The position numbers and the translations under genes are program-made. A DNA stretch of 64,000 nucleotides from Promethearchaeota archaeon (lineage in GTDB: Archaea; Asgardarchaeota; Lokiarchaeia; Sigyniarchaeales; SOKP01): NCBI GenBank assembly GCA_011364925.1, contig RDOA01000005.1, forward strand, positions 1-64,000. Reading direction: 5' to 3'. Of this stretch, positions 9,083 to 17,359 are shown piece by piece. Position 1 is the first letter of the stretch; every line of letters begins with the position of its first letter. The notes under the pieces were generated by a model. That model worked only from the letters and a program-made list of their open reading frames with translations. It made no database searches and was not told the DNA's origin.

Positions 9083-10189
9083 ATGATTGATGGATTATTA
9101 ATCATTAATGACACGGGAGCGTTACTCTACAATTGGCATCCCAAGAACTATGAAGGTAATGGAAAGGACGATTTATTTAGTGGATTTTTAACTGCGATAA
9201 ATAGTTTTGCCACGGTAGAAAGAGGTGAGGATATAAAATCTCTAAAATTAAAAGAAACACAGCTAATATTTGAGAAATATGAGGAACTCACTCAAAAATT
9301 AACATTTGTTATTACCACTAAAAATGAGGAATTCATTGAACTATTACACGCTGTAATCCATGATCTTATGGATATATTTACGGAACAATTTCAAGAAAGC
9401 CTTAACAAACCTTTTGATGGTGCTGTTACACTCTACCAAAAATTTGGTATTCATGTCGATCAAATTCTTAAATCACATGGTTTGGATGTATTAGATGACG
9501 CTATAAGAGATATTGATGATTTCTCAACATTAAAAAGCATAGTATATCTCGAACCAAAAGGAGGAAATATTTACTACATCCACGCTAAGCAATATGTAAA
9601 CAAGGAGAAAATTAGTTTTTTAATCCCTCTACTCATGAATTCTGCTAAGCTATTATATCAAAATAATTTAAACGAACGGCTTTATTGGATTCTACTAAAT
9701 ACTGTTCGTAGTGAAATACTGGTAGTGGAGCCAAGGAATAAAGTTTTAATTGTTAAACAACACCAATTAACTGAAGATCTTGAGGAAGAATTTCTCTCTC
9801 TTGAATTCTTTAAAGATAAGGATAGATATATAAAAAAGCCTAAAAAACTAATAGAAAAATTTGAAAATATCGAATGGAATCCTTTTATTAAACAAATCTA
9901 TTTAGTTGATATGGTAGGTAAAATCTTTTATTCAAATCTAATAGATAATACTTTTGATTGTAGTGATTTTGTTCCTGAAACCATAAGTTTTTTAACATCT
10001 TCTAAGAAAATAAGCGATGAGATATATAACAGGACTCTGTTCAATGCAAGTATAGGAGGAGAAAAATTTGCTACTATATGTATTAATTTCAATAATTTTA
10101 CCTTAATTGTAATAGGTTCGATTAAGGATTTAAGTTCTTTTTCTATAATACAAGAACTATGCTCAGAGATATATCGGAAACTCAAATAA
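9083..10189 (+). CDS. Multi-domain longin/roadblock-like protein (eukaryotic signature protein)
   Basis: N-terminal GLLIINDTGALLY...DLFSGFLTAINSFA longin pattern; two further units starting KSIVYLEPKGGNIYY and KQIYLVDMVGKIFYS. Confidence 0.7.
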   Translation: MIDGLLIINDTGALLYNWHPKNYEGNGKDDLFSGFLTAINSFATVERGEDIKSLKLKETQLIFEKYEELTQKLTFVITTKNEEFIELLHAVIHDLMDIFTEQFQESLNKPFDGAVTLYQKFGIHVDQILKSHGLDVLDDAIRDIDDFSTLKSIVYLEPKGGNIYYIHAKQYVNKEKISFLIPLLMNSAKLLYQNNLNERLYWILLNTVRSEILVVEPRNKVLIVKQHQLTEDLEEEFLSLEFFKDKDRYIKKPKKLIEKFENIEWNPFIKQIYLVDMVGKIFYSNLIDNTFDCSDFVPETISFLTSSKKISDEIYNRTLFNASIGGEKFATICINFNNFTLIVIGSIKDLSSFSIIQELCSEIYRKLK

Positions 10190-11704: not shown

Positions 11705-12085
11705 TCACTTTTTAAGATAAATCATAACTGCATTTTCCTTTTCAGCAGGACGTCTTTCAGGTACAATGACAAATTCTGAGTTTATTGTCTCATAATAATC
11801 TGATCGCATATACAAATTACAATAACATGTTCCAAATTCTTTAACATCATCGAAAGAATAATCACATGGACAAATTAAATCTCTATCTAGTTCCCTATTT
11901 CCCGAAGCGAGTCGGCAGGGACAAGACTGATACCCATAAGTTTTTTTGTTGAATACTAAACCGCTAATTAAATCTTCAAAAGCTTTTGAACTTTTATTCA
12001 AAATCCATTTGTTCTTCTGGCTTACCTTCTTTACATATTCTTTCATGCCATCTATGGTCTCCATATCCATTTTAATTTCCTCCAA
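11705..12085 (-). CDS. Ferredoxin-thioredoxin reductase catalytic-subunit family protein
   Basis: CPC...CPC...CYC motifs. Confidence 0.92.
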   Translation of the reverse strand: MEEIKMDMETIDGMKEYVKKVSQKNKWILNKSSKAFEDLISGLVFNKKTYGYQSCPCRLASGNRELDRDLICPCDYSFDDVKEFGTCYCNLYMRSDYYETINSEFVIVPERRPAEKENAVMIYLKK

Positions 12086-12389
12086 GATTGATTAATTCTT
12101 CATACTTACCTGGATTGTACCCTACAACAACTTTATCATCACATACAACGAAAGGATAAGATATTCTTTCTGGCTTGTATTCTTCTCTTAAATAAGTTAA
12201 TACTTTTGATTTATCACTTGGATCAATTGTATCTACGTCTACATATCGATATTTAATACCTTTTTCGTTGAGCCAAGTTTTGCATCGTTTACACCAACTA
12301 CAAGTTGATAAAGTGAAAATCGTCCAATTCTGGGAGTCTTTTTCCCCGTTAACTTCTTGGGCTAATTTTTCAATAAATTCTGGGAACAT
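12072..12389 (-). CDS. Glutaredoxin/NrdH-like protein
   Basis: TLSTCSWC, SYP cis-Pro motif, VVGY; overlaps the FTR start. Confidence 0.9.
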   Translation of the reverse strand: MFPEFIEKLAQEVNGEKDSQNWTIFTLSTCSWCKRCKTWLNEKGIKYRYVDVDTIDPSDKSKVLTYLREEYKPERISYPFVVCDDKVVVGYNPGKYEELINLGGN

Positions 12390-12447
12390 ATTTTACACCA
12401 ATTAATTATAATATTTTCTAATTTTATATTGTTTTTAGTAATTCTTC

Positions 12448-12894
12448 CTATTTATTAGCGAGATTTTTCTTCCAATTTGGATCTATGCATGCGATGGCTT
12501 CTTCAGTAAGCTTCTTTAGTTCACTTTCGCACGAACTTGATAGAATCCCTAATTGTTCTAAAGCCCTCTTATCTCCAATCTTCATCAAACTCTCAACAAT
12601 TAAAAATAAAAGGCTTTTATCTTGTTCAATTTCAGACTTTTCTAATTCTCTTTTCAAAATTTCTATTATAGCCATAGTAGCTTTAGCATCCTTTATCTCA
12701 CCCATAGCTTCAATTATTCGGTTTATGACTATTGGTTCTTCTTCAGACTTTAAAGCTTTGACTAATAAGTTTGTTGCTCGCCCATCTTTTAAATGTCCAA
12801 TCTGCCTTGCAGCAGACACGCGTTCCATTATCTTGCCATGAAATAAATTTTTTATAGCTAGATTATATTCGCTATCTCGAGAATTAGAATCCAT
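12448..12894 (-). CDS. HEAT/PBS-lyase repeat protein
   Basis: Repeated AARQIGHLKDGRA / EAMGEIKDAKA / ESLMKIGDKRA units. Confidence 0.85.
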   Translation of the reverse strand: MDSNSRDSEYNLAIKNLFHGKIMERVSAARQIGHLKDGRATNLLVKALKSEEEPIVINRIIEAMGEIKDAKATMAIIEILKRELEKSEIEQDKSLLFLIVESLMKIGDKRALEQLGILSSSCESELKKLTEEAIACIDPNWKKNLANK

Positions 12895-13063
12895 ATAAGT
12901 GTGTAAAATAGAGTAAGCATTAAAATTTGATTTTTATAAATTATTAAATCTAAGCATATTATTGGTTAATATTTATACAATTATACACAAAAAACATTTG
13001 ATATATATACGAATAACATCTTAAATATAATCTAGATAAAAACTAAATTCATTTAACATTACT

Positions 13064-14107
13064 ATGCCTGAAGAGGTAATCCTCTGCGTAAGCTATTTTG
13101 ATTCAATTTTGGGTCCTAATCTCCTTCATTGTAGCTCTCCATTAAATCCTCAAGAACATCCGGACTTAGGGCGAATTTTGGAGTTTACTGAGGAAGAAGG
13201 AAATTTCATTTTTACCTTTAGAAAGTATCAAACAATTAATCACATTTTTTATCTTGAATCGGAACTAGCTCGAGGGGGAAAAGAACTCTTGATGATAACT
13301 TATATGATTAGAGCTGCGTACTTCAAGGATGAAATAACTGATGTATATAATTATTTATTATCCAAAACTCCCGATCTCGAATCCTACGCTTCAGAACTCA
13401 AAAGTCTCCAAAATCTTAAGGAACTACTTCACGGTCATAAAAATCGAATAAATCAAAAAAAGATTTTAAATGGAGCTTCGAAACGGTTTAAAAAAGAATT
13501 CTTTAAGTTATTCGATAAGTATCTAGAAAAAATGAGTCCTCAGCTAGATTTGAGTTCTCATTTATTAGATAAAGGAAATTTAAAAAAAATATATGTCTTC
13601 GGACCGAGAAACTCCGGTAAAACGGAACTGGTTAAAAATTTAGAGGTAATACAATTCCTACAATATAAGAATAATAATAAAAAAAGAGATTTATCGAGTA
13701 AAATTTACGATTTCATAATTGATAATATCGAAGTTTTAACGTACGAATGTGTTGATAAGGAATCAGATGTCCAAAATATTAAAATGTACGAAGATTGTAT
13801 TGATAATGCTCAAGGCTTTATTTTAATCTTTAACGCTTCTAATAAAGATTCTTTAGAAGAAAATATAGATATGTTCCAGTTAGTATTAAATAGGTGTCAG
13901 GATAAGGGAGAATCCATGCCGATACTTATAATAGGGAATAAATTTGACGATAAAGAAGAATTAACACCCGATTTAATACTCAAGAATTTCGATATGGATA
14001 AGTTAACGGAATGTGGGCTGCTAATTCAATCTTATTCGATTAATGTCCTCAGTGATAATGACAAAATAATTGAAGCAGTTCGGTGGTTACTCCAACAAAT
14101 AATTTAG
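13064..14107 (+). CDS. Folliculin/uDENN-type longin domain fused to a Ras-superfamily small GTPase domain
   Basis: YFDSILGP and HIFYLESELARGG at the N-terminus; G1 GPRNSGKT, AQGFILIFN and G4 NKFD at the C-terminus. Confidence 0.8.
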   Translation: MPEEVILCVSYFDSILGPNLLHCSSPLNPQEHPDLGRILEFTEEEGNFIFTFRKYQTINHIFYLESELARGGKELLMITYMIRAAYFKDEITDVYNYLLSKTPDLESYASELKSLQNLKELLHGHKNRINQKKILNGASKRFKKEFFKLFDKYLEKMSPQLDLSSHLLDKGNLKKIYVFGPRNSGKTELVKNLEVIQFLQYKNNNKKRDLSSKIYDFIIDNIEVLTYECVDKESDVQNIKMYEDCIDNAQGFILIFNASNKDSLEENIDMFQLVLNRCQDKGESMPILIIGNKFDDKEELTPDLILKNFDMDKLTECGLLIQSYSINVLSDNDKIIEAVRWLLQQII

Positions 14108-14247
14108 TAAAGTTCCCCCCTGCATTAAAGTATTTGTTTTATAATTAATTTTTATGAAAAAGCGTATTTCTATTATCTTTCAACTTTTTCAATTTATAGT
14201 TTAGAATATAAACTTTTTTTATCGTAAATAATTATGTTACAATTACT

Positions 14248-14544
14248 ATGAGTAAAATGCAAATACCAATCGTAATAACGAAGGAAGACTGCCACAGGTG
14301 CCATGAATTAGTTGGTTGGCTTAAAGAACACGATGTTGAGTATATAGAACGTAATATTGACGACGAGGAATTTGTGCAAAAGTTACTACACGATGGCAAC
14401 TTCCTTAAAACTTTCTGTGATGCTGACGGGTGCATTGTAAATACACCAGTTGTCATTATGAACGGAAAATATTGGTTTAAAGAACTCTGGGGCATTTCGG
14501 GGCTCAGAGAAAGCGAAGCTAAGAAGCTTTTTGGTGTTAAGTAA
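14248..14544 (+). CDS. Glutaredoxin-like protein
   Basis: TKEDCHRC, NTPVVIMNG, plus an extra C-x4-C (CDADGC). Confidence 0.8.
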   Translation: MSKMQIPIVITKEDCHRCHELVGWLKEHDVEYIERNIDDEEFVQKLLHDGNFLKTFCDADGCIVNTPVVIMNGKYWFKELWGISGLRESEAKKLFGVK

Positions 14545-14572
14545 AATACATACGAACAGTTAATTTTAATTC

Positions 14573-15172
14573 TTATTTTTTAAACTCTGCTAATCTTTTT
14601 ATGACTTTTCTAATTGTTTTTAATCCAGTTTCATCGTTTTGAACTCCATCTTTACCTCTATCTTTACTCCATAATGAAGCACCTAAATTGGCTCCAAAGG
14701 CTCCTCCAGATACGGAAATTATAAGATTTTGTTGATAGAAATCTAAAATACTTCTAATGGCGATTTCTTGTCCTCCGCTTCGATCCCCTCCTACTGCAAG
14801 AGCGCTCCCGAATTTACCTTTAAATACATAAGGATTTTTAGCTATTAATCCACGACAGCGATCCAAAATTGTTTTTAATTGGCCAGAAAGATTTCCTTGA
14901 AATACTGGTGTCCCTATAAGCAAAAATTTGGCTTTTTCTAACAATGGATAAAGATTTTGAATGTCATCTTTGTTAATACATCCCTTTTTTTCTCTTATAC
15001 AGTAATCGCAGTGTGTGCAATACATTATTTCTTTTCCTCTTACTGTCCAGAATTCGGTTTCAAACCCAAACTTTTCAGAAGCGTAATTCAGAGCGTATTC
15101 AACAGCGTAATCAGTACCTTGTTTCCTTGGACTACCACAGATTCCTAAAAGCAGATTATTATTTTCCACCAT
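14573..15172 (-). CDS. Iron-sulfur flavoprotein (Isf)/flavodoxin family
   Basis: GSPRKQGT, CTHCDYC-x6-C, GTPVF, GGQE. Confidence 0.88.
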   Translation of the reverse strand: MVENNNLLLGICGSPRKQGTDYAVEYALNYASEKFGFETEFWTVRGKEIMYCTHCDYCIREKKGCINKDDIQNLYPLLEKAKFLLIGTPVFQGNLSGQLKTILDRCRGLIAKNPYVFKGKFGSALAVGGDRSGGQEIAIRSILDFYQQNLIISVSGGAFGANLGASLWSKDRGKDGVQNDETGLKTIRKVIKRLAEFKK

Positions 15173-15261
15173 AGTTATAATAAAGCATATTTCTTTCTTT
15201 ATTAATTATTTTTCATTCTGAACCAAAAAATGTTATAAATACTTGTTTATTACTAATTACG

Positions 15262-15915
15262 ATGGATTCACCCAAATCGAGTTTAGCTAGAATTAAGATT
15301 AAATTTCCAGACCAACTGTGGATTTCGGAAATTTTCAAGAAGTTTCGCGATGTGAGAATGGAAATTGAACACTTCCTTCCTTACGATTTTGAATATTCTA
15401 TTGGAAATTCAATTATAGAAATTACTCATTACAATATTGATTCAATAGTAGAGGAAATTACGCACCATAAATCTGTAATCGAAATGAGTGTGTTGGAAAA
15501 AGAAGAAACAAGAGTAAAATTTAATGTAAAAACGAGAGATCCGTTTTTATTATATGCAATAATCAAATGTGGCGTTCTTGTTAACTTTCCCGTCCGAGTA
15601 AGAGATGGATACGCTTACTGGAGATTAGTATCAAGTAGAGAGCGAATAGATAATCTACTAAATATTTTTGAACAAAAAGGAATTAACTATACGCTCCTTC
15701 GAATTGGGACTTCTCCTTATAGTGTTGACGATGAAAAGAATCGATTAACGCTGGAAGAATCCGCAATACTGGATAAAGCTATATCGTTGGGGTTCTTTGA
15801 AATTCCAAGAAAAATTTCGCTAGAGGATCTGGCTAACGAATTAGGGAAATCTAAGTCTGCTTTGTCAGTTAATCTTAGAAAGATAATCAAGAAAAAAGTA
15901 ATGTTTGAAATGTAA
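15262..15915 (+). CDS. Bacterio-opsin-activator-type (HTH_10) transcriptional regulator
   Basis: C-terminal LTLEESAILDKAISLGFFEIPRKISLEDLANELGKSKSALSVNLRK. Confidence 0.88.
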   Translation: MDSPKSSLARIKIKFPDQLWISEIFKKFRDVRMEIEHFLPYDFEYSIGNSIIEITHYNIDSIVEEITHHKSVIEMSVLEKEETRVKFNVKTRDPFLLYAIIKCGVLVNFPVRVRDGYAYWRLVSSRERIDNLLNIFEQKGINYTLLRIGTSPYSVDDEKNRLTLEESAILDKAISLGFFEIPRKISLEDLANELGKSKSALSVNLRKIIKKKVMFEM

Positions 15916-15922
15916 CACATTT

Positions 15923-16432
15923 CTAGTAATATGTCTTAATTTGTTCTGCCAAAAATTTCACGATATTATTTACATTAAAAGGCCATACATAAGAAAACTC
16001 AATGCTGGGATTTTTCTTCTTTGCACGTTCAATGGCTTCGGGGATGTCCTTTTCGGAATGTTCTCCTCCTCTTGTCATCATCGGAGTAATGACAATAATT
16101 TTTTCTGGATTGAACTTTACCGCTTCTTCAAAGGCTTCATCTAAAGAAGGAGAACAAAATTCGTTAAATCCAACTACAACACCATAGCCCGTTTGATTTG
16201 AAAGATTTTCTGCCATTTCTCTTGATGCAAAACTGTATGGATCATTTTCCTGAGTTCGCGGCCAATTACGCATTTTACGGTCTAATTCTTCAAATTGTTG
16301 TTGCATTTGTAGAGGTGGTGGTCCCGGCATATTCTCTAACCTAGAGTGAAGCATAAAATAGTCAAGTGTTTCTTTTTGAGGAAAATTATTAGGTGGCATT
16401 CCATGCATTGCAAGCACTATAATAGTTTTCAT
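15923..16432 (-). CDS. CbiX/SirB-type class II tetrapyrrole chelatase
   Basis: LAMHG, GFNEFCSPSL, PMMTRGGEHSEKDIP. Confidence 0.85.
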   Translation of the reverse strand: MKTIIVLAMHGMPPNNFPQKETLDYFMLHSRLENMPGPPPLQMQQQFEELDRKMRNWPRTQENDPYSFASREMAENLSNQTGYGVVVGFNEFCSPSLDEAFEEAVKFNPEKIIVITPMMTRGGEHSEKDIPEAIERAKKKNPSIEFSYVWPFNVNNIVKFLAEQIKTYY

Positions 16433-16579
16433 AATAATATTAATAATTCTTAGCTTAAAATTAAAATTATTAAAAATATCCTGAGAGAGTATGAATATCT
16501 TCGAGTATAATAATATTATAAATTAATTGAGGTAAATACCTTACATATTATAAAATTAAAAAGAATAAGAAAAAAAATT

Positions 16580-17359
16580 TTATACCCATTCTTCTTTAAG
16601 AATTTCTCCTTTAACAGAGACAACGATGTACTTTATAGGTACTTTTCGAGTTGCATTTTTAGCTCCTTCTTGAGCCAAAGCCAAAAGACCACCGCAACAG
16701 GGAACTTCCATTATGGCAACAGTAAGTGTGTTAATTTTAGCATCATCGATCAATGATCTAATTTTTTCTATATAGACTTCTCTACCTTGATCAAGTTTTG
16801 GACAAGCGATTGCTATTGATTTTTTATTCAGAAAATCTCTGTGAAAATCTCCGTATGAAAAGCCGGTACAATCAGCAGCAAGCAAAACATCAGCACTTTG
16901 ATAATACGGTGCTCGAGGATTGATTAAATGCATTTGAACTGGCCATTGCCTCAAAGCTGAAGGTATTTTTCCAGCTACTACTTCTGATTGTGATTCCGGT
17001 TCATCAAAAACCATAGTTTGAGCAGAAGGACAACCACATTGATGGCTATGCTCCGCAACAATTTGCTTGATTTGTTGAGTTTCTAGTGTTTTTATTGATT
17101 CTAGATGTTCCTCAACCGCTTCTTCATCAAACTCTAACGCTTCCCTTTCTATAATCTCAAGAGCACCCTCTGGGCACCCAGAAATACAGGCACCTAATCC
17201 ATCGCAAAATATCTCGTTTACAACTCTTGCTTTTCCATCAATCACTTTGAGAGCACCCTCTGCGCATTCTACTACGCAGTTTCCGCATCCGGTGCATAAT
17301 TCCTCGTCTATTCTAATAATCTTTCTAATTTTCGAGTTATGTTGTTTTGTTTCAGTCAT
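16580..17359 (-). CDS. 4Fe-4S dicluster protein with Cys-rich C-terminal domain
   Basis: CTGCGNCVVEC, CDGLGACISGCP, QWPVQ, AADC, CPKLD, MEVPCC. Confidence 0.88.
   Translation of the reverse strand: MTETKQHNSKIRKIIRIDEELCTGCGNCVVECAEGALKVIDGKARVVNEIFCDGLGACISGCPEGALEIIEREALEFDEEAVEEHLESIKTLETQQIKQIVAEHSHQCGCPSAQTMVFDEPESQSEVVAGKIPSALRQWPVQMHLINPRAPYYQSADVLLAADCTGFSYGDFHRDFLNKKSIAIACPKLDQGREVYIEKIRSLIDDAKINTLTVAIMEVPCCGGLLALAQEGAKNATRKVPIKYIVVSVKGEILKEEWV

Follow-up and report, generated by a model that had tools for sequence, protein, structure and literature searches.

A predicted FLCN/NPRL2-type longin domain fused to a putative Arf-derived pseudo-GTPase in one family of Lokiarchaeia

Introduction

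FLCN-FNIP, GATOR1 and C9orf72-SMCR8 are GTPase-activating complexes with longin domains that regulate mTORC1 and signalling at the lysosome in eukaryotic cells; where they originated among prokaryotes is a subject of current research. Arginine fingers are borne by the longin domains of FLCN (R164), SMCR8 (R147) and NPRL2 (R78). Here we present the in-silico analysis of a gene from a Promethearchaeota archaeon (Lokiarchaeia, Sigyniarchaeales), located in a stretch of 64,000 nucleotides that is termed the window throughout (GenBank assembly GCA_011364925.1, contig RDOA01000005.1, positions 1 to 64,000 of the forward strand). The gene (13064..14107, + strand, as are all features of the protein given below) is an open reading frame (ORF) of 347 amino acids plus stop. 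Whereas the eukaryotic longins of GTPase-activating protein (GAP) type act in heterodimeric complexes on a separate Rag or Arf GTPase, the predicted longin of this protein is fused to a G domain of its own. On the motif and modelling evidence given below, we hold it to be about an even call that the protein is a conserved regulator in which a GAP-type longin, putatively acting in trans, is combined with a pseudo-GTPase module.

Two features are reported to mark FLCN, SMCR8, C9orf72 and NPRL2 and to be absent from other longins, namely a GP motif in the loop before β2 or at the start of β2, and an arginine finger spatially adjacent to it; the same pair occurs in Asgard 'FLCN/SMCR8-type' longins (PMC12290439; Traffic 2025). 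Longin-GTPase fusions and NPRL2/FLCN-like longins have been published for Asgard archaea (10.1101/2020.10.19.343400; PMC10933270), with Liu et al. (10.1101/2020.10.19.343400) describing such fusions for NPRL2-like longins. The Asgard 'FLCN/SMCR8-type' and 'NPRL2-like' longins of these reports (PMC12290439; 10.1101/2020.10.19.343400) agree with the present protein in motifs, in fold and in their fusions to GTPases and to PAS, GAF and histidine kinase domains, but neither report contains a clade with G2-G5 lost or a cysteine motif in switch II. Similarly, in the longin-GTPase(-roadblock) proteins of P. syntrophicum MK-D1 (Tran et al. 2024, PMC10933270) the longin lies N-terminal to an Arf/Rag-like domain, as it does here, but the present protein has neither the C-terminal roadblock nor canonical G motifs. 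The kind of protein is already published, both as Asgard GP/arginine longins and as longin-GTPase fusions, and the protein of the window is a derived variant of it. A literature search for LokiRagM and LokiRagO returned nothing.

Results and discussion

Fold and structural relatives of the N-terminal domain

By its modelled fold and its motifs, the N-terminal domain is identified as a longin of the FLCN/NPRL2 or 'GAP-longin' type in which both hallmark motifs are kept. For residues 1-165, AlphaFold2 with an input of 70 diverse relatives gave a model with a pLDDT of 89.4 and a pTM of 0.86, which comprises strands at 5-13 and 17-23, a helix at 35-41, strands at 46-52, 55-65 and 73-83, and helices at 94-113 and on to 157. 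This β-β-α-β-β-β-α-α order is the topology of the longin fold. The longin core, as delimited by the model and by the structural matches, corresponds to residues 1-113 (13064..13402) and is followed by a helical extension and flexible linker (residues 114-172; 13403..13579; helices at 116-157), which is the least conserved part of the protein.

Foldseek searches of the PDB placed among the top 22 or so matches the FLCN-complex chains 8dhb_J (5.7e-5), 6ulg_L and 6nzd_H, the GATOR1, KICSTOR and SEA chains 9v0j_A (1.3e-4), 9o5a, 7t3b and 8adl, the Lst4 longin 4zy8, the FNIP2-complex chain 6ulg_N and the solved Lokiarchaeota longin 8yqg; the identities of the individual FLCN, FNIP2 and NPRL2/3 chains are presumed from the titles of the PDB entries. 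E-values of the Lokiarchaeota longin, GATOR1, FLCN and Lst4 matches lay between 6e-5 and 1e-3, and the first generic longin of the list was VAMP7 at about 0.08. The independent aligner VIA, run over 48,161 representative chains, returned Z-scores of 11.6 for 8yqg, 10.9 for GATOR1 (8fw5_C), 10.3 for Lst4, 10.2 for FLCN (6nzd_H), 9.9 for the SEA complex, 9.5 for Sec22 and 9.3 for TRAPP, and its re-scoring of the Foldseek list gave the same order, with Sec22b at 10.1. The nearest solved folds are those of FLCN, GATOR1 and Lst4, in agreement with the initial annotation, which had read an FLCN/SMCR8-like longin from the letters of the N-terminus.

Certain results weigh against the assignment to the GAP type. 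With differences of about one unit at most, the Z-scores do not separate the GAP longins from generic ones (e.g. Sec22b, 10.1) and amount to a tie, although GAP longins align over more residues (131-146 versus 117-123) and also lead the combined 3Di and amino-acid ranking. Searched against the whole genome at E<=10, neither Pfam Folliculin (PF11704) nor NPR2 (PF06218) matches the gene, the sole sub-threshold Folliculin hit (0.0027) belonging to the paralog at C91:24190-25602 described below, and a profile of the N-terminal domain searched against all PDB sequences finds no FLCN or NPRL chain. The N-terminal domain alone, with Pfam also run on the 70 relatives, gave no Folliculin or NPR2 match at E<=1; residues 1-170 had no Pfam match and the whole protein no NCBIfam match. 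The ESM Atlas yielded weak leads (0.83), among them one neighbouring cluster with NPR2 on 19% of its members. The protein further differs from the eukaryotic GAP longins in its Arf-like C-terminus, in having no DENN or NPRL2-type C-terminal domain and in not being detected as a member of their sequence families; what it shares with FLCN (FNIP), NPRL2/NPRL3 (GATOR1/SEACIT) and SMCR8/C9orf72 is the longin fold, the GP motif and the arginine between β4 and β5.

The GP motif and the candidate arginine finger

The GP motif (G17-P18; 13112..13117) closes the segment YFDSILGP (residues 11-18) at the start of strand β2, and the second motif, A69-R70-G71-G72 (13268..13279), lies within NHIFYLESELARGGKELLMI (residues 59-78, ...ELARGGKE... 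around Arg70) in the modelled loop 66-72, between the strands at 55-65 and 73-83. In an alignment of 107 full-length orthologs, on which the ortholog counts below are also based, G17, P18, A69, R70 and G72 are present in 107/107 and G71 in 106/107, with a single G71D. Across the 70 diverse relatives G17, P18 and N59 are invariant, and R70 and G71 are retained in at least 90%. Conservation to this degree goes well beyond chance. As inferred from the topology of the longin sheet, the β4-β5 loop with R70 should neighbour the β1-β2 turn with GP. Arg70 can be regarded as a candidate arginine finger, since its topological position in the model is that of the fingers of FLCN, SMCR8 and NPRL2. The motifs listed in the initial annotation (YFDSILGP, Arg70, GPRNSGKT, NKFD, LTYEC and the missing DxxG) were all recovered in their places, and the ARG motif that it had singled out is conserved to the extent just described.

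A degenerate Arf-family G domain

Residues 173-347 (13580..14104) form a G domain that, by profile and fold comparison, descends from an Arf-family GTPase. The Pfam matches of the protein are confined to residues 172-346, with Arf at 7.6e-7 (29.2 bits against a cut-off of 22.3) and Ras at 2e-6, the best Foldseek matches are Arl/Arf proteins together with the Asgard ArfRs 8oun and 8oul, and Arf proteins are also recovered, at about 1e-33, with a profile built on the wider family. The Asgard ArfRs (8oul, 8oun, 8oum) are among the best matches to residues 172-346 both by fold and by PDB sequence. However, the ArfRs work as active switches and bear an amphipathic helix at the N-terminus, whereas in the present protein the switch motifs are gone and a longin stands in place of that helix: the N-terminal amphipathic helix of the Arf family is absent, and the N-terminus consists of the 165-residue longin with its helical extension.

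Of the nucleotide-binding motifs, the P-loop is the best preserved. In GPRNSGKT (G1, residues 180-187; 13601..13624) G180 and G185 are found in 107/107 orthologs, K186 is lysine in 96 and arginine in 11, and T187 varies more (86 T, 16 S, 4 N, 1 D). The column of the switch I threonine (G2) is occupied by D209 (89 D and 13 N of 107). The slot of G3 and switch II, LTYECVD...C245 (residues 225-245; 13736..13798), is without DxxG or a catalytic glutamine: LTYEC (225-229) aligns to [YW]DxxGQ with E228 in the aspartate column and D231 in the glycine column, and the orthologs show [YF]-E-C-[IV]-[DE], with E228 in 101/107, C229 in 106/107 and D, E or N at 231, and never the glycine or the glutamine. 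C229 and C245, the latter at least 95% conserved, flank the slot. In NKFD (G4, residues 292-295; 13937..13948) N292 is found in 107/107 and K293 in 94/107, and the guanine-specificity aspartate D295 in 21/107; H takes its place in 41, and Y, N, K, Q, E or S in the other orthologs. The SA of G5 is replaced by N327-V328 (S-I-N-V). Mean pairwise identity is 78% in the longin core, 68% in the G domain and 51% in the linker, and 40 of the 175 G-domain columns are at least 95% conserved.

The domain can be classed as a pseudo-GTPase by sequence because the switch I threonine, DxxGQ, the guanine-specificity aspartate and G5 are replaced and the P-loop is kept, through which it may still hold a nucleotide. 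The slot of DxxGQ is taken by E-C-x-D/E. The initial annotation had correctly described a G domain without G3, and of its two proposals the one of a GAP joined to a pseudo-GTPase fits the additional loss of the switch I threonine, the G4 aspartate and G5. PseudoGTPases are exemplified by CENP-M, Rnd and the pseudoGTPase domains of p190RhoGAP. In these proteins, as in the present one, the G fold is held under selection with its catalytic or switch motifs lost. A literature search found no paper linking Asgard archaea with pseudoGTPases, and a conserved clade, confined to one family, in which G2-G5 are lost and GP and ARGG stay essentially invariant appears to be undescribed.

An Arf-like domain preceded by a longin also brings to mind the receptor of the signal recognition particle (SRP), in which the longin-like SRX domain is bound to the Arf-like SRbeta, and the protein could be imagined as a fused analogue of that pair. 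Fold matches to SRX (1nrj, Z 7.1; 5ck3, Z 6.9; 2fh5, Z 6.2), the presence of SRbeta 5ck5 among the G-domain matches and the label SR beta given to one ortholog by the Joint Genome Institute (JGI) agree with this idea. We nevertheless consider it extremely improbable, as the values for SRX fall 3-4 Z units short of those for the longins of FLCN and GATOR1, SRbeta has intact motifs and is active as a GTPase, and the protein shows neither a transmembrane anchor nor an SRP context.

Distribution and direction of change

A word-indexed search retrieved 196 homologs at E<=1e-3; over 100 of these span the whole protein (about 347 amino acids), at 48-98% identity. Overall, full-length orthologs share 44-98% identity, and divergent copies 38-43%. 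Source labels assign these homologs to Loki-, Thor-, Heimdall- and Hermodarchaeota metagenome-assembled genomes or call them 'GTPase SAR1 family'. An Asgard-wide distribution, as the Thor, Heimdall and Hermod labels of the submitters would imply, was rejected. In a survey of one genome per GTDB species, with an orthogroup cut-off of E<=1e-20, the orthogroup was found in 33/40 other genomes of the GTDB family of the window and in 0/160 genomes representing 26 further families of the same phylum, so the submitter labels are taken to be unreliable. It is usually single-copy per genome. The orthogroup is lineage-restricted to one Lokiarchaeial family, and the broader longin type beyond it extends to 88/201 sampled genomes and 10/27 families.

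A FastTree phylogeny of 50 proteins with longin and G domain, midpoint-rooted and without support values, splits into a mostly canonical clade and the clade of the present protein, all members of which are without DxxG[Q]/NKxD. Relatives at 18-25% identity (e.g. P0170, P0171, P0183, P0213, P0225 and P0226) combine GP and [AS]RG with the full Arf set, i.e. GLxxAGK[TS], PT[LI], [YW]DxxGQxxxR, NKxD and TSA. One canonical relative is encoded in the same genome (C91:24190-25602, + strand, 470 amino acids): it presents GP and T-A-R-G-N followed by GLDRAGKT, DLGGQ, NKCD and an extra C-terminal domain, and is matched in Pfam by Gtr1_RagA (2e-25), Arf (3e-21) and, below threshold and over the ARG region, Folliculin (0.0027). 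In BLASTP the two proteins align at E=0.011, with their ARG motifs and P-loops in register and the NKFD of the present protein opposite NKCD, and the relative represents a canonical example of the MK-D1-like architecture.

By parsimony, the degenerate state of the G domain is the derived one, because the canonical motifs are common to all Arf-family proteins. A derived branch of one family is therefore a poor proxy for the ancestor of FLCN and GATOR1, and the suggestion of the initial annotation that the protein might model an ancestor of the FLCN, GATOR1 and C9orf72-SMCR8 systems was not supported; the relatives with canonical Arf or Rag domains are better candidates for ancestor-like proteins.

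Seven basal representatives of the clade, at 35-49% identity (P0120, P0121, P0124, P0127, P0130, P0132 and P0133), carry C-x6-C-x2-C-x5/6-C (e.g. DCIERDFECDRCKNYGGC) in place of DxxGQ and switch II. The motif is a possible zinc or iron-sulphur knuckle, and such a four-cysteine replacement of switch II appears to be undescribed. In P0132 and P0133 the P-loop and the arginine are both lost. The orthogroup of the present protein keeps the outer cysteines, C229 and C245, along with the conserved C278 and C317. It could be envisaged that in this clade a metal or redox switch built on cysteines took over from the nucleotide switch of the fused Arf domain, the pseudo-GTPase then gating a still active FLCN-type longin GAP in response to the state of its thiols or metal; this agrees with the glutaredoxins, ferredoxin-thioredoxin reductase and FMN reductase that neighbour the gene within the genus and would, if true, tie small-GTPase regulation to redox status, yet it is to be taken as speculative and improbable.

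Cis or trans action of the conserved arginine

Among 50 representatives with both domains, drawn from clusters at <=50% identity whose lineages are related to one another, the arginine is kept in 48. Of the 23 whose G domain is non-canonical it is kept in 21, and of the 11 in which the protein's own P-loop is destroyed, in 9. The same type of longin is also encountered without a GTPase, fused instead to TBP, to a helical region or to a zinc-ribbon and helical region, and PAS, GAF and histidine kinase domains are found downstream of the longin and G domain in other relatives (P0179, P0190). A trans or structural role is favoured because the arginine persists beside destroyed P-loops and the longin is fused to domains other than GTPases, which argues that the conserved arginine may serve more than the fused G domain, through trans action or a non-catalytic role. 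Arginine retention independent of the fused P-loop appears to be undescribed.

The cis mechanism, which elaborates the one-polypeptide GAP-GTPase of the initial annotation into a self-contained timer switch in which Arg70 would reach the nucleotide of its own G domain (in cis or in a homodimer) and replace the lost glutamine, has to be set against this distribution. Domain fusion usually signifies direct functional interaction, in canonical relatives this longin is followed by an Arf or Rag domain that is complete, and the sole two representatives without the arginine have broken P-loops as well; moreover, the invariant P-loop glycines, the Lys or Arg always found at position 186 and the essentially invariant ARGG (one G71D) also agree with action on the protein's own G domain. 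However, the switch I threonine, the glycine of DxxG and the guanine-specificity aspartate are lost or unconserved, by which sensing of Mg2+ and γ-phosphate as well as selectivity for guanine become doubtful, and nine lineages retain the arginine beside a destroyed P-loop of their own. The full-length model (pTM 0.57; pLDDT below 50 at 162-173 and at 226-242, the equivalent of switch II) has a disordered 162-173 linker and offers no confident cis arrangement. The cis version is, on this evidence, somewhat disfavoured, and we rate it as unlikely.

Fusions of the GP/[W]ARG longin to TBP, helical or zinc-ribbon and helical regions could also mean that the protein is a non-catalytic adaptor or platform, with GP and ARG serving structure or ligand binding and the protein acting as a scaffold, recruiting partners or working in the manner of a guanine nucleotide exchange factor (GEF), without GAP chemistry. 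GP is likewise present in C9orf72, a subunit that does not bear the finger (PMC12290439), and longin platforms mostly act as GEFs or adaptors (PMC10933270). On the other hand, fold stability alone poorly explains an invariant Arg-Gly in a solvent loop at the finger position of FLCN, SMCR8 and NPRL2, and the GAP longins are the nearest folds. An adaptor of this kind is possible, though we hold it doubtful.

In the trans-acting regulator that we prefer, the longin domain would probably be a dimeric platform, as other longins are, and would act in trans on one of the roughly 80 small GTPases of the genome, most plausibly as a putative GAP using Arg70; the degenerate G domain would no longer cycle as a GTP switch and might instead bind a nucleotide constitutively, provide a docking site or have a regulatory function. 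Several observations count against it. The P-loop glycines are invariant and the two domains are fused in cis, which also suits the self-contained arrangement; GP and ARG persist in paralogs fused to TBP or helical regions, where they may be structural rather than catalytic; and synteny within the genus and in two other genera points to no client GTPase or partner.

With invariant longin motifs beside a G domain that is predicted to be no normal switch, the protein represents a natural separation-of-function case, and it may provide an early instance, in archaea, of a pseudo-GTPase maintained by selection. The family constitutes a compact series in which the same GAP-type longin is joined to a canonical, four-cysteine or degenerate G domain; such a series could show whether GAP chemistry by the GP/arginine pair goes back to archaea and whether the pair works in cis or in trans, and the C91:24190-25602 protein is a natural positive control for the question of GAP action in cis.

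Paralogs, gene neighbourhood and other observations

Two paralogs in the same genome illustrate the longin apart from a GTPase. One of 317 amino acids (C84:1973-2926, - strand) joins a GP/WARG longin to TBP (Pfam 5.6e-19, residues 225-300), an unusual fusion, and one of 391 amino acids (C49:13244-14419, - strand) continues from a GP/WARG longin into a helical region of about 240 amino acids without Pfam match. Elsewhere P0150, P0151, P0156 and P0165 have a CPxC...CEH zinc-ribbon-like segment followed by a helical domain without Pfam match, of which the last part alone is retained in P0150, and P0163, P0176 and P0188 have longin and helical domain without the ribbon.

The genome is AT-rich (G+C about 30%). 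A HEAT-repeat gene lies divergent to the ORF at 13064-14107, and a 169-bp AT-rich spacer is found upstream of the latter; a scan for sigma-70 promoters and terminators carries no information in an archaeal genome. The surrounding part of the window (11705-17359) is a thiol/redox neighbourhood with ferredoxin-thioredoxin reductase beta, glutaredoxin, the HEAT protein, a glutaredoxin-like protein, FMN reductase, an HTH_10 regulator, CbiX and a 4Fe-4S protein. Synteny with these redox neighbours is confined to the genus, within which the ferredoxin-thioredoxin reductase beta subunit, two glutaredoxin-like proteins, the HEAT protein, FMN reductase and the HTH_10 regulator recur; in two other genera the ortholog is surrounded by unrelated genes (hydrolase, FAD enzyme, metallo-beta-lactamase, JAB proteins) and is alone conserved. 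No operon partner conserved between the genus and the two other genera was found. A 368-amino-acid ORF in the window (9083-10189, + strand) has no Pfam match at E<=0.1, and a role as a linked partner is unsupported, no counterpart having turned up around the ortholog in three congeneric genomes.

The 3.9-Mb genome contains 82 matches to the Pfam Arf model, a few of them with in-frame stops, and the gene described here ranks 80 among them. Many of the 82 lie in frames of 300-700 amino acids, suggesting multidomain small GTPases.

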